Part shown: positions 6,935 through 63,359 of the stretch, in pieces
How positions within the stretch are numbered: position 1 is the stretch's first letter
Layout of the letters: each line of letters starts with the position of its first letter
Assembly (NCBI GenBank): GCA_035547315.1
Contig: DASZVH010000004.1
Location: 12,107 to 76,106 of the forward strand
Direction: 5' to 3'
Source: Minisyncoccota bacterium
Lineage (GTDB): Bacteria > Patescibacteriota > Minisyncoccia > Phycocordibacterales > Phycocordibacteraceae
Length of the DNA: 64,000 nucleotides
Translations under genes and position numbers: made by a program
The notes under the pieces: generated by a model
The model's input: only the letters and a program-made list of their open reading frames with translations
Database searches by the model: none
Told to the model about the DNA's origin: nothing

Positions 6935-7000
6935 AATATCTTACATAGGCTCTAGTGTCAAGTTGTCGGCGGCTTCATGATTCCGTATAGTGGCGGCACT

Positions 7001-7321
7001 ATGGCAAAAGAAAATAATAATAAGAAGCTTTCGATCAGGCCGCTCGGCGACCGGGTCGTCGTGAAGCCGGATGAAAAAGAGGGAGAGAAGAAGCTCGCCT
7101 CGGGCATCATCATCCCCGAGACCGCGGATAAGGAGAAACCGATGACGGGGAAGGTGGTCGCGGTGGGCCCCGGCCGCTATGAGGACGGGAAATTGGTCCC
7201 GATGGGGGTGAAGACGGGCGACGAAGTGCTCTTCGGGAAGTACTCGCACGAAGCGGTGAAGGTCGGCGGCGAGGAGTACTACCTCATCTCAGAGAACAAC
7301 ATTTTGGCGATTATCAACTGA
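7001..7321 (+). CDS. groES: co-chaperonin GroES
   Basis: [23 protein letters not shown]...[16 protein letters not shown] hexamer lies 10 nt upstream of the ATG. Confidence 0.9.
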
Positions 7322-7353
7322 AACCTGATCCCTAAAACCTAACCCTGTTATCT

Positions 7354-8991
7354 ATGGCGAAGCAGATCATTTTCGGCGAGGAGGCGCGCGAGCGCATCGC
7401 GAGCGGCATCCGACAGGCGGCGCGCGCGGTGAAGGTCACGCTCGGCCCCAAGGGCCGCAACGTCGTGCTCGAGCGCTCATACGGCGGCCCGCGCATCACC
7501 AACGATGGCGTCTCGATCGCCAAGGAGATCTCCCTCAAGGACAAGTTCGAGAATCTCGGCGCCGAGATCGTGAAGGAGGTCGCCAATAAAACTAACGACA
7601 ACGCAGGCGACGGCACCACGACTTCGGTCGTGCTCCTCGAGGCGCTTATCACCGAGGGGCTCTCCAAGGTCGCCAAGGGCGCCTCCGCGATGGCTATCCG
7701 CAAAGGCATGGAGGCCGCGCGCGACGCGGCCGTCGCCGAGATCAAGAAACTGGCCAAGCCGGTGGCGGGCAAGAGCGAGGTCAAGCAGGTCGCGAGCATC
7801 TCGGCCGAGAGCGAGGAACTCGGCGCCATCATCGCCGAAACGGTCGAGAAGGTGGGCGGCAACGGCGTCGTCACGGTCGAAGAGAGCCAGGGACTCGAGC
7901 TCTCGTACGAGATCGTCGAGGGCCTTGAGTTCGACAAGGGCTACGTCTCCGCCTACCTGGTGACCAACCCGGAGCGCATGGAGGCCGTGCTCAAGGACGC
8001 GCCCCTCCTGATCACCGACAAGAAGATCTCGACGATACAGGAGCTCCTCCCGCTCCTCGAGAAGGTCGCGCAGTCCGGCAAGCGCGAGCTCGTCATCATC
8101 GCCGACGACGTGGAGGGCGACGCCCTGACCACGCTCGTGGTCAACAAGCTCAAAGGCGCGTTCTCCGCGCTCGCCATCAAGGCGCCCGGCTACGGAGAGC
8201 AGAAGAAGGCGCTCCTCGCGGACCTCGCGATCGTCACGGGCGGCCAGGTGGTCTCTGAGGAGACGGGCACGACCTTCGAGAACGCGACATTGGCGACGCT
8301 CGGCAAGGCGGCCAAGGTCATCGCCACCAAGGACTCGACCACTATCGTGGGCGGAAAAGGCAAGAAGGCCGCGGTGGAGGCGCGCATCGCCGAGCTCAAG
8401 AGCCAGATGGAGGCGACCGATTCCAAATTCGACAAGGAGAAGCTCGCGGAGCGCGTCGCCAAGCTCGCCGGCGGCGTGGCGGTGATCTCGGTGGGCGCTG
8501 CCACCGAGACCGAGATGAAATATCTGAAGGACAAGATCGACGACGCGGTCAAAGCGACCAAAGCCGCGATGGAGGAGGGCATCGTCGCCGGCGGCGGCAC
8601 CGCTTTCGCCAAAGTGGCGAAGAAGATCGCGGAGGCGGGCGGCAAGCTCGGCGAGGATGAGCGCGCCGGCTACGACCTGGTCGTGCGTGCGCTCGAGCAG
8701 CCCCTGCGCCAGATCGCGGAGAACGCCGGCAAGGAGGACGCCGCGATGCTCGTCGCCAAGGTGCAGATGGGGGAGAAGAACGCGGGCTACGATGCGGCCG
8801 CCGACGAGCTCGTCCCCGACATGCTGAAGGCGGGTATCGTCGACCCGGCCAAGATGCCGCGGCAGGCCCTCGAGAATGCGGTCTCGGCTGCGGCAATCCT
8901 CCTCACTACGGAGGCGGCGGTCGCCGAGCTCCCCGAGCCCAAGAAGGACTCCGGGGCCTCCGCTGCCGATATGGGCGGCATGGATTTCTAG
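7354..8991 (+). CDS. groL: chaperonin GroEL
   Basis: 545 aa with GDGTTT, GGG and a C-terminal MGGMDF. Confidence 0.95.
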
Positions 8992-9007
8992 GATACATAC
9001 CGCAATA

Positions 9008-9037
9008 GCAGCGCGGCCCCCCGGGGGCCGCGCTGCT
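9008..9037 (+). terminator. GC-rich perfect-palindrome hairpin after groEL
   Basis: agcaGCGCGGCCCCccgGGGGCCGCGCtgct. No T-run follows, so it may be a terminator, an RNA-stability element or a protein-binding site. Confidence 0.4.
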
Positions 9038-9048
9038 ATACTGCCCGC

Positions 9049-60953: not shown

Positions 60954-61535
60954 ATGAGCACCTACGAAAAAGTCGCAACTGCCATCATTGTCATCCTCGT
61001 CGCTATCGGCGTTGCCTTCTCCTATCACGAAATTACCGAGCCGCATGAAAATAACGGCGGCCCAGACTTTGACCACAGCATCGGCCAGAATTTCGAAATC
61101 GGACCCTTCGACACCATCTTGAGCCGTCGATCCTCGGGCGGTATCGAACAGAATTGCGCGCCATTGCAGTCAGTGATCCTCGGAGCACTGCATGATGTAA
61201 AAGAAAAGCTCGAGGCCGCAGGCACGTATCAGCGAAGCGCGGATGTTTTCGAGGTCAATCAAGACACGTTGCAATTCTTCTGCAATGCGCAAGCAGAGGT
61301 GACACTCATTGATGACACTGGAACGAAACTCGTGCTTGATAAGCCGCCCTTTACGCGCGGCATTCCAGCGGGCGGTACAGCTACGGACGTAGGCACTGAG
61401 GTGCGTATCGACGCGACAATTGTGCGTCCCGGGACCGTACCACCAACCATGCCGACAGTTTCCGTTGAAGAACTCATTCCAGATCGGTATCTCGAAGGGG
61501 CAGTATCGTCGAGTACCGAAGTGATTGGGGAGTGA
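60954..61535 (+). CDS. hypothetical membrane-anchored protein
   Basis: One N-terminal TM helix and a ~170 aa extracytoplasmic domain. No motif recognised. Confidence 0.35.
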   Translation: MSTYEKVATAIIVILVAIGVAFSYHEITEPHENNGGPDFDHSIGQNFEIGPFDTILSRRSSGGIEQNCAPLQSVILGALHDVKEKLEAAGTYQRSADVFEVNQDTLQFFCNAQAEVTLIDDTGTKLVLDKPPFTRGIPAGGTATDVGTEVRIDATIVRPGTVPPTMPTVSVEELIPDRYLEGAVSSSTEVIGE

Positions 61536-61564
61536 TCGCATAGGAACGTCTTCGGGGCCCTCTC

Positions 61565-61800
61565 TGGACTCGAACCGACTTTCCAGAGAATTTAAGAATC
61601 CTCCTTGAGCGTCTAAGCTATAATTCCGACGAGGGTTCGATTCGTAGAAGGGCAGCCAAGTCGAGCGCAACACATGCGCACGAGTTCGTCAAGGGTCTCG
61701 TGCGCGAGAACCCCGCACGAGACGCATCGCGTTTTTAAGTAAAGAGAAAACCGCCGCATCGAGAGCGTGCCCAGCGGGCGGCTTCTCGTACGCGACGGTC
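61565..61800 (+). ncRNA. candidate structured ncRNA; the 5' end resembles the tmRNA tRNA-like domain
   Basis: GGGGCCCTCTCTGGACTCGAACCGAC compared with E. coli ssrA 5' GGGGCUGAUUCUGGAUUCGACGGG. A GAAGGGCAGCCAAG segment resembles the SRP-RNA GGAAGCAGCCAAGG motif. No complementary 3' acceptor strand was found, so the assignment is tentative. Confidence 0.2.
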
Positions 61801-62071
61801 AGTGTATTTGCTTGGGGCAGCCGATTGGCATGGACGCACCCTGGGCGTAGACGCGCAACCAGAGATTCGAAATGCCTTTCCCGCGCAATTGCGGGAGAAC
61901 GCTGTTCTCGATCGCCTCGTTGAGCTTGAGGAGAATGTCACGGCACTGTGCAATGCGCCGATTATCCTTGCCGGGGCCGGTGTCGATTTCGACCGCCAGC
62001 CAACCTGAGTTGACGTCGAGCGGGCCTTGATTGCGCACCCGCAACTCGACATCCCGAAATTGCACCTTCAG
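61799..62071 (-). CDS. hypothetical protein (possible GTG start); conflicts with the ncRNA hypothesis
   Basis: The minus-strand frame reads protein-like (VQFRDVELRVRNQGPLDVNSGWLAVEIDTGPGKDNRRIAQ...) with GC3 ~72%. An AGGTG lies upstream of an alternative frame. Confidence 0.2.
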   Translation of the reverse strand: MKVQFRDVELRVRNQGPLDVNSGWLAVEIDTGPGKDNRRIAQCRDILLKLNEAIENSVLPQLRGKGISNLWLRVYAQGASMPIGCPKQIH

Positions 62072-62240
62072 GGAATATCGGCGCGGGCATCGCGATCGGG
62101 GTAGCGATAGGCGTCGCACTCGACGCCGGCGTGGCAAGGCGCCAGTAGCCGTTCTGAGCAAGGCTTAGCCTTGCTCAGGAAGAGGTCGGAGAAGATGCCG
62201 GGAATCGGCGGTGAAGGGGAGGCGGCGCTATACTGATGGC

Positions 62241-63308
62241 ATGCAATTCCTCGCTTCGCTTTTTGCCGGCATCGCGGCGCTTGTCGGTTCTTGGTTCTCT
62301 CGCCCGGCGCCGCAGGCGCCCGTCGCGGTGCCGGCACCGCAAGAAGCGCCGGCGAGCACGAGCACGGAAGCGGGCGCGAAGACGAACGCACCGGGGAGCG
62401 CGGCGCCCGCAGCGGGCGCCGCGTCCTCGACCCCGGCACCGGCAGCCGACGCGCTCCCCGCGGGCTCCGCCTGGCTCTCCGCGCTGCCGCTCGGGGATTA
62501 TCAGTATTCGACGAGCGGCCCCGCGGCGGGGAAGGTCTATCTCTGCCACATCGCTACCGGCGGCGGCGGCGCAAAGGGCAGCGCGAGCTGGATCTCGGGC
62601 GAGGAGTGGTACCCCGCCGAGAAAGTCGCGGTCGAGGGCGCGGCCTCCTGGCCGGACGCCTCCTACCATATGAGCATCTCCGGCTCGACCCGCACGATCA
62701 CGAGCAACGGCGAGCCGACCGACCATGCGACCGGCATCTTCCCGATACGGAAGTCCGACCCCGCGTACCAATTCGACGCGAACCCGAACACGATCACGCC
62801 GCAGAGCTACGACTTCTCCTTCCCGGCATACCCCTCCTTCGCCAGTTCGCCGCAGTGCATCTTCGGGGAGGTCGGCATCATGAACGACGGCGTGCCGCTC
62901 TTCGACGGCTTCGACGCCGAGTATCGCGACGCGCTCGCGCACGAGACCCAGGACGCATGGGAGGGGCACCCGGACGAGAGCGGCGTCTACCACAATCACG
63001 GCTTCGAGGCCGGGCCGGTCAAGGAGCCGGTCTCCACCGTGGTCGGCTTCGCCTTCGACGGGTTCCCCATCACGGGCTCGCTCCTCCCGAGCGGCGCATA
63101 CCTCCACACCGCCGACCTCGACGAGTGCCACGGCCTCACCTCGACCATCACCCTCGACGGCAAAGAGGTTACGACCTACCACTACGTGCTCACGCAGGAT
63201 TTCCCCTACTCCGTCTCCTGCTTCCGCGGCGCTTCCCATGAGCCCAAGCCGGGAGGCGGGCAAGAGGGCGCGCAGCAGCGCCCCGGGCAGCCCCCGCCGC
63301 CGCGGTAG
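62241..63308 (+). CDS. secreted YHYH-domain protein
   Basis: Signal/anchor MQFLASLFAGIAALVG, an Ala/Pro-rich linker and a C-terminal ...TTYHYVLTQDFPYSVSCFRG (YHYH motif). A TATACT hexamer lies 6 nt upstream of the ATG. Confidence 0.55.
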   Translation: MQFLASLFAGIAALVGSWFSRPAPQAPVAVPAPQEAPASTSTEAGAKTNAPGSAAPAAGAASSTPAPAADALPAGSAWLSALPLGDYQYSTSGPAAGKVYLCHIATGGGGAKGSASWISGEEWYPAEKVAVEGAASWPDASYHMSISGSTRTITSNGEPTDHATGIFPIRKSDPAYQFDANPNTITPQSYDFSFPAYPSFASSPQCIFGEVGIMNDGVPLFDGFDAEYRDALAHETQDAWEGHPDESGVYHNHGFEAGPVKEPVSTVVGFAFDGFPITGSLLPSGAYLHTADLDECHGLTSTITLDGKEVTTYHYVLTQDFPYSVSCFRGASHEPKPGGGQEGAQQRPGQPPPPR

Positions 63309-63359
63309 GGCCGGAGCCGTTTTGCTATACTGGGCGGGCTTATCGATAACTACACGCCT

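Follow-up and report, generated by a model that had tools for sequence, protein, structure and literature searches.

The mRNAs of mammalian mitochondria are set apart by tRNA punctuation, are leaderless and carry no Shine–Dalgarno (SD) sequence. In bacteria, a Pribnow box located 6–8 nucleotides (nt) before the start codon is an accepted genomic signature of leaderless transcription, and group C of the GeneMarkS-2 classification, which is rich in such transcripts, comprises mainly Actinobacteria and Deinococcus-Thermus, e.g., Mycobacterium tuberculosis, Streptomyces, and Deinococcus deserti (PMC6028130). Within this group, 25–60% of the transcripts are leaderless, the promoters are dominated by the -10 element, and the first genes that carry this box have no SD (PMC6028130). 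SD-independent initiation with scant genome-wide SD use also characterizes groups B and X of the same classification (Bacteroidota, cyanobacteria); in group B, the mRNAs are leadered and every gene, internal or not, is preceded by a shared non-SD motif (PMC6028130). Additionally, the anti-SD motif is absent from about half of the Parcubacteria 16S genes (Tsurumaki et al. 2022, RNA 28:1041; PMC9297842), a report that is silent on leaderless mRNAs and on a substitute mode of initiation. Here, we describe a 64,000-nt stretch of DNA from a Minisyncoccota bacterium (contig DASZVH010000004.1; hereafter, the window), in which TATACT/TATAGT-like hexamers precede many start codons at a narrowly fixed distance. 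The pattern very probably means that many mRNAs of this SD-poor lineage of the candidate phyla radiation (CPR) are leaderless or nearly so. This reading, put forward in the original prediction, is supported by the spacing of the hexamers, their promoter features, their conservation in relatives, and the junction between a tRNA-Thr gene and the release-factor gene prfB.

The window has a G+C content of 63% and harbors seven tRNA genes. Because its ligA protein is 62–68% identical to those of Candidatus Kaiserbacteria/Paceibacterota metagenome-assembled genomes, the source organism is placed by protein similarity among the Parcubacteria-type CPR members (Paceibacteria, Kaiserbacteria-like). An exact look-up of groEL had no hit; by means of two other proteins, the same sequence was located in the Logan assembly SRR12170514, and ~9 kb of extra flanks were taken from there (locus L162). 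Genes in the window were called with a self-trained codon log-likelihood model, in which start codons were chosen from coding potential and start-codon weight only and the motif was ignored. Pfam backed the gene names given in the original prediction (groES, comFC-like, pilM, pilN, KGG, YHYH, hisS, gatC, ftsE, and an ABC ATPase) and further identified pilins, a prepilin peptidase, a ribonucleotide reductase, RNase J, pyrG, and the release-factor gene. The comparison comprised 162 loci in all, including a ligA set of 80 genomes with 38–67% G+C and a prfB search set of 49 diverse CPR-type loci (mean G+C 42%) and 31 non-CPR outgroup loci. The box pattern scored was TANNNT, and the spacer was counted as the nucleotides between the hexamer and the start codon.

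With these motif-blind starts, TANNNT was observed at a spacer of 6–10 nt in 21 of 59 genes (binomial p ~5e-13), and the remaining 5-nt spacer bins out to 50 nt held one to four genes apiece. Shuffled upstream regions yielded 3.0±1.7 genes with the pattern at 6–10 nt, the maximum being 9 in 2000 shuffles. A start-agnostic test found the motif at 22 of 101 in-frame ATG/GTG codons of the 5′ zones versus 9 of 590 internal ones (Fisher p = 3e-13). The hexamers that had been cited at individual starts all exist in the sequence, and these counts bear out their enrichment above background; several of their coordinates were off by 1–6 nt (e.g., the TATACT of the gene at 26701 lies at 26688, not 26682). 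The range of 6–30 nt previously given was too generous, as the enrichment is limited to 6–10 nt and gone beyond 10 nt, with a modal spacer of 6 nt in the window. The box is present in 21 of the 39 genes having an upstream gap of at least 13 nt or a divergent neighbor, and is rarer in genes located 12 nt or less from the upstream gene (4 of 20). The boxes are packed tightly against or within the upstream genes.

The context of the hexamers indicates that they are, with high probability, sigma-70-type -10 boxes of TATACT/TATAGT consensus, mostly of the extended -10 kind (TGn or G upstream). In an unbiased 6-mer count at spacers of 5–11 nt, covering 789 open reading frames (ORFs) from the window and relatives, TATACT ranked at the top (67 vs. 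1.1 expected), and TATAGT (21 vs. 0.8) and TATAAT (19 vs. 1.7) were also in excess. A G was found at position -2 of the hexamer in 21 of 31 window sites (p = 2e-5), in 68% of the 98 ligA-locus sites, and in 65% of the 32 prfB-locus sites, and a T at -3 in 30–65% of the sites across the aligned sets. No conserved columns that could form a -35 hexamer were detected at -40..-15 in the three hexamer-aligned sets (window, ligA loci, and prfB loci), which is acceptable for the extended -10 promoter class. Similar boxes also lie ahead of non-coding genes, namely the LOOT RNA (40355–40234, minus strand; TAGAAT 22 nt upstream, 40356–40383), tRNA-Gln (49847, plus strand; TATAGT 32 nt upstream, 49809–49846), tRNA-Ser, and the tRNA-Met at 26477. 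The TGn extension, the lack of a -35 element, and the boxes before non-coding genes argue for a promoter element rather than a ribosome-binding site. The modal spacer of 6 nt puts the A of the ATG where +1 canonically lies in a sigma-70 promoter, and this A is therefore the predicted first transcribed base.

The SD signal was scored as the 4-mers GGAG, GAGG, or AGGA within -17..-4. These were found at 9 of 70 ORF starts in the window against 13% of random positions, hence without enrichment, and the near-absence of SD sites that had been claimed is borne out. In the ligA-locus relatives, the 4-mers were depleted (16 of 323 starts, 5%, vs. 10% of random positions), and the 49 CPR-type prfB loci again displayed the -10 peak, with SD 4-mers at 10% of their starts. 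The non-CPR outgroup loci, used as a positive control, exhibited the SD at 26 of 85 starts (31%) with a peak at a spacer of 5–8 nt and no -10 peak. The single SD site previously reported at 43297 is real (GGAGA 43301–43297, 6 nt before ATG 43290 of a YkoP-domain gene; 43288–43302, minus strand), and one site is close to the chance expectation. No common non-SD ribosome-binding motif preceding all genes, internal ones included, emerged from the window or the ORFs of the relatives, and neither the window nor the 162 loci yielded a 16S/23S signature. The leaders are G-poor (21% G vs. 30.5% in the genome), and repeated CTAAC or ACTTAC-like words were observed in those of groEL (7322–7353), RNase J (4402–4450, minus strand), and the 40179 gene (40180–40210, minus strand), where they formed no demonstrable positional motif. 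A CTAAC-like motif was rejected as an alternative ribosome-binding site: CTAA/TAAC is ~13-fold over the whole-window background but has no positional peak across 313 ORFs, and its enrichment is largely explained by stop codons and A+T-rich leaders.

The hexamer is also conserved in position among the relatives. The N-terminus of ligA aligns from residue 1–3 in the 80 relatives' genomes, and ~70 of these 80 Kaiserbacteria/Paceibacterota genomes carry TANNNT 6–9 nt ahead of the homology-anchored ATG, usually as GGTATACT or GCTATAGT, with positions 3–5 and the flanks being variable. The other genes of the ligA loci, gatC and the 25823 orthologue among them, showed 26 TANNNT occurrences at spacers of 6–8 nt versus ~1.6 per offset elsewhere; the orthologues of the 25823 gene have TATACT 7–8 nt upstream. 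Spacers of 6, 7, and 8 nt, which match the canonical separation of +1 from a -10 box, dominate in the relatives, with 34, 29, and 22 sites, respectively. This N-terminal homology upholds the earlier re-placement of the ligA start to the codon closest to the hexamer, and coding potential does the same for ftsE and YHYH, the latter start being also given by the gene call of a separate pipeline.

Evidence that does not depend on the promoter was found at the release-factor gene (prfB, 41310–42173; PCRF and RF-1 domains). At the tRNA-Thr(CGU)/prfB junction (41236–41312, plus strand), the discriminator base at 41308 and the prfB ATG at 41310 are separated by 1 nt, therefore with no room for a leader and with no space for a promoter or ribosome-binding site after the tRNA-Thr. 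The ATG lies likewise 1 nt past the discriminator in five metagenomic relatives (L098, L102, L115, L119, and L124), whose prfB proteins are only ~50–55% identical, and the gap amounts to 4–5 nt in two further loci (L086 and L122). The tRNA-Thr gene is followed by prfB in ~16 of 46 loci, with gaps ranging from 1 to ~450 nt. Among 45 other CPR-type loci, 20 have a -10 box 5–10 nt ahead of the same conserved prfB ATG. As judged from these gene arrangements, the layout abutting the tRNA and the layout with a -10 box would share a 5′-terminal AUG, which is promoter-independent evidence for such a terminus. In the former, the AUG would most likely be produced by excision of the abutting tRNA-Thr from the transcript; no CCA is encoded at the 3′ end of this tRNA, as would suit cleavage by RNase Z. 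Of the seven tRNA genes in the window, this is the only one that abuts a start codon in this manner. The CPR-type RF2 is short (287 amino acids), beginning just past the frameshift position without the frameshift site and the first ~25 codons, and the outgroup RF2 genes (L130–L160) retain the classical SD-dependent +1 frameshift site AGGAG...CTTTGAC. The loss of this SD-dependent site is consistent with a weak or absent SD/anti-SD function.

These features lead us to infer where transcription starts, how the ribosome binds, that the tRNA is processed, and that the 16S rRNA of this organism lacks the anti-SD. The majority of the mRNAs probably have their 5′ end on the AUG or directly beside it: the RNA polymerase would start at the A of the ATG at spacers of 6–7 nt, or 2–4 nt earlier at spacers of 8–10 nt, and the ribosome and initiator tRNA would bind the 5′-terminal AUG directly, without SD pairing. 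By this scheme, 25 of ~59 genes (~40%) would be transcribed as leaderless or near-leaderless mRNAs. The claim that the hexamers leave no room for a leader would thus hold for the genes with spacers of 6–7 nt, and the spacers of 8–10 nt imply leaders that are not strictly zero.

The individual sites are given below by interval, box, spacer, and start codon, on the plus strand except where indicated. A spacer of 6 nt was found at a 53-amino-acid ORF (9037–9051, tgcTATACT, ATG 9049), where a terminator-like hairpin of groEL abuts the box; at a PEMT/ICMT-family gene (9219–9233, tgcTAAGAT, ATG 9231); at the prepilin peptidase gene (18885–18899, a weak TAACGT that includes the upstream stop codon, ATG 18897); at ligA (22060–22074, gcTATAGT, ATG 22072), whose box is the one kept in the relatives; at the gene at 25823 (25811–25825, gcTAAGAT overlapping the gatA stop codon, ATG); at a ClpP-family gene (27157–27171, tgTATGAT, ATG 27169); at a 61-amino-acid ORF (32225–32239, a weak gcTATCGT, ATG 32237); at a ThiF-family gene (35030–35044, a weak TAAAAT within the upstream gene, ATG 35042 in an ATGA overlap); and at the YHYH gene (62229–62243, gcTATACT, ATG 62241). 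The spacer is 7 nt at pilM (10561–10576, tgcTATACT, ATG 10574), gatC (24001–24016, TAGAGT immediately 3′ of the ligA stop codon, ATG 24014), the gene at 26701 (26688–26703, tgcTATACT, ATG), and a nitroreductase-like gene (34013–34028, tgcTAAACT, ATG 34026).

Spacers of 8 nt occur at the comFC-like gene divergent from pilM (10520–10536, minus strand, gcTAGAAT 10536–10531, ATG 10522), at hisS (38992–39008, minus strand, gcTATAGT 39008–39003, ATG 38994), and at the gene at 32457 (32443–32459, tggTATGAT, ATG), whose start is uncertain, coding potential alone favoring 32607. Those of 9 nt belong to groES (6986–7003, TATAGT 6986–6991, ATG 7001), a type IV pilin (18348–18365, tgcTAGAAT, ATG 18363), a 43-amino-acid ORF (42169–42186, ggTATAAT, ATG 42184), and the ABC ATPase (46727–46744, tgcTATAGT, GTG 46742, with ATG 46751 as an alternative start). 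All four spacer-9 sites have an A as the base 7 nt past the box, and leaders of 3 nt are therefore predicted, the ~3-nt leader of groES being conditional on a start at this A. An independent pipeline called groES from ATG 6977 (114 amino acids; L162 10618–10962), which places the TATAGT inside the ORF, and the starts at 6977 and 7001 are hardly separable by coding potential. The spacer extends to 10 nt at pilN (11708–11726, TATACT, ATG 11724; short leader), the gene at 40747 (40731–40749, gcTATACT, ATG), ftsE (43418–43436, ggTACAAT, GTG 43434), and an ABC permease (BPD_transp_1; 49794–49812, minus strand, TATACT, ATG 49796). An out-of-frame ATG (11719–11721) lies 5 nt past the pilN box and 5 nt ahead of the pilN ATG, and coding potential backs the 11724 frame only.

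The remaining genes were distributed among other classes. Three genes cited among the earlier hexamer examples, pilA (17768–17803, TATACT, 27 nt, ATG 17801), the KGG gene (27786–27833, TATACT, 39 nt, ATG 27831), and the gene at 63360 (63326–63362, tgcTATACT, 28 nt, ATG), are not of the leaderless type. Together with the gene of the ribonucleotide reductase large subunit (28223–28274, TAGAAT, 43 nt, ATG 28272), they have strong boxes that are probably the promoters of short, G-poor, SD-less leaders. For sixteen genes, the gap to the upstream gene is -4 to +12 nt, in many cases with an ATGA overlap, and these are probably translated via termination–reinitiation coupling. Fourteen of the 59 genes fit no class, including groEL, gatA, and pilC.

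Several observations weigh against the leaderless reading. Nine or ten sites have spacers of 8–10 nt and so imply leaders of 2–4 nt; five boxes are weak (TAACGT, TAAGAT twice, TAAAAT, and TATCGT) with ~3 sites expected by chance, and three of these five run into an upstream stop codon or coding region. At 32457, 35042, and 46742, the start differs from the one picked by coding potential only and is thus partly motif-dependent. Moreover, in the L162 flank upstream of the window, two genes have a good SD-like sequence, GGGAGGAAGG and GGAGGA, each 5 nt before the ATG; in their context, these sites read TATAATcGGAGGAtgacgATG (redoxin) and GGGAGGAAGGacATG, at 2040–2056 and 2530–2561. Their number is about the chance count, yet a minority of the genes may use the SD and the anti-SD may be retained.

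Among the alternatives, the hexamer could be a non-SD translation signal in leadered mRNAs, acting through pairing with an altered 16S tail or as an A/U-rich S1-binding enhancer, instead of a promoter. The motif does sit at an SD-like location, 6–10 nt before the start, it also precedes the closely spaced internal genes 18897, 25823, 35042, and 42184 (gaps of -4 to 10 nt), and the anti-SD loss reported in many Parcubacteria makes a replacement conceivable. However, base pairing would favor a contiguous block, and the ligA sites conserve T1, A2, and T6 around a variable middle; a TGn lies directly upstream of the hexamer, boxes of this kind also stand ahead of tRNA genes and the LOOT RNA, the box is rarer before tightly coupled genes than before the others, and the tRNA-abutting prfB loci lack the hexamer and nevertheless use the same ATG. 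We regard a translation signal as quite improbable.

Slightly less probable again is that the promoters are real and translation begins at a downstream in-frame codon, so that the leaders would be ordinary and the proximal ATGs unused. Alternative in-frame starts do exist for several genes (e.g., 46751, 32607, 35264, and 9067), but coding potential alone chooses the proximal codon in 20 genes, the N-termini of both ligA and prfB align with those of the relatives from residue 1–3, no SD precedes the downstream alternatives, and the sharp spacing of 6–8 nt to the ATG would be left unexplained. The notion that, in a genome of 63% G+C, chance TANNNT near the starts arises from TAA/TAG stop codons and A+T-rich stretches between genes, to which the weak boxes TAACGT 18885 and TAAGAT 25811 (both including the upstream stop codon) and a mild enrichment of TAA 0–20 nt upstream of starts lend some color, is scarcely credible in view of the 21 genes observed against the composition-preserving shuffles, the low counts in adjacent spacer bins of the same regions, the identical peak given by the strong consensus hexamers alone, and the persistence of the pattern in genomes of 38–67% G+C.

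Further elements were observed in the window. GC-rich hairpins without a T-run lie 0–4 nt upstream of -10 boxes at 9008–9036, 11680–11707, 40705–40730, and 49813–49845, the last being common to the divergent tRNA-Gln and permease promoters. Situated at the usual -35 location, these hairpins are probably terminators of the upstream genes; as a part of the promoter they were rejected, given an only modest enrichment (23% vs. 12% of 40-mers at or below -15 kcal/mol), strong at five sites. Another hairpin, single and long, makes up the 84-nt gatC–gatA spacer (24308–24391; -47.6 kcal/mol, z = -4.9) and stops 8 nt short of the gatA ATG. Present once in the window, it looks like an inserted palindromic element; it was dismissed as a general processing signal since gatC and gatA overlap by 8 nt in most relatives and only L014 and L030 have a similar spacer (87–96 nt, -42 to -48 kcal/mol). 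The Rfam LOOT RNA (40234–40355, minus strand) is a full-length match with 81.5 bits against a gathering score of 46.4, a small hairpin is located between its TAGAAT box and the RNA, and the weak overlapping ORF (40288–40680, plus strand) is probably not a gene. The region 61619–61745 (plus strand) has a gcTATAAT box followed by ~115 nt with a T-arm-like segment, GGGTTCGATTC, and stable hairpins, up to a terminal GCGTTTTT. This region, with a fold z-score of -2.2 and no Rfam match at E <= 1, resembles a transcription unit for an RNA that is not annotated.

The type IV pilus/competence cluster (10574–22057) comprises pilM, pilN, a pilO-like gene, pilB, a response regulator, pilT, pilC, two pilins, the prepilin peptidase, and pseudopilins, and is adjoined by the divergent comFC-like gene; the gene structure at 20317–20877 is ambiguous and may hold a frameshift or a mis-called ORF. 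Directly 3′ of tRNA-Gln, a low-G+C island (46–53%) spans ~49.9–58 kb (listed as 49921–57300) and encodes a GmrSD-like nuclease (49983–51047), a large serine recombinase (51739–53079, minus strand), an AccI-type restriction enzyme (53186–54049), and an Eco57I-like methyltransferase (54070–55566). This island is probably an integrated mobile restriction–modification/defense element, and some of its genes have -10-like boxes 6–7 nt before the start.

For gene-start calling in CPR genomes, the pattern implies that rules based on the SD or on the longest ORF misplace starts, as exemplified by the groES ATG at 6977, upstream of the box. A broader proposal, which we advance tentatively and hold to be somewhat less than evenly probable, is that the whole CPR class (Paceibacteria/Parcubacteria, including Kaiserbacteria) gave up the SD/anti-SD interaction, with a 5′-terminal AUG as the default, reached via per-gene extended -10 promoters, coupling, and mitochondria-like tRNA punctuation as at tRNA-Thr/prfB. 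If true, this would supply a mechanism for the puzzling anti-SD loss reported in Parcubacteria and would fit the loss of the prfB frameshift. The pattern also brings a deep-branching, genome-reduced group of bacteria into the discussion of leaderless initiation, debated as either an ancestral trait or a consequence of genome reduction, and the tRNA-Thr/prfB junction offers a clean case of a bacterial mRNA whose 5′-terminal AUG would arise by tRNA processing.

Literature searches combining leaderless mRNAs with CPR, Patescibacteria, Parcubacteria, or Saccharibacteria returned no relevant report, within an incomplete coverage that makes an earlier description possible, and those combining tRNA punctuation with leaderless mRNA returned only mitochondrial work. 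In comparison with the known systems, the window resembles GeneMarkS-2 group C in that the -10 box dominates the promoters, lies 6–8 nt before the start, and favors operon-first genes. It differs in lineage (Patescibacteria/CPR), in that its boxes sit tight against or inside the upstream genes, and in that the remaining genes of group C carry an SD, whereas here neither internal nor leadered genes showed an SD enrichment. The scarcity or lack of SD usage is shared with groups B and X; unlike group B, the dominant signal is a promoter box and not a common non-SD motif. The anti-SD-lacking Parcubacteria belong to the same superphylum, and anti-SD loss predicts the SD-less starts seen here. As in mammalian mitochondria, the prfB start abuts a tRNA 3′ end, excision would yield a 5′-terminal AUG, and no SD pairing would be involved; unlike there, most 5′ ends would come from promoters, and the processing is only predicted. 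Leaderless initiation is thus known elsewhere and would here be extended to a CPR lineage, with an SD-free context and a conserved tRNA-Thr/prfB junction.

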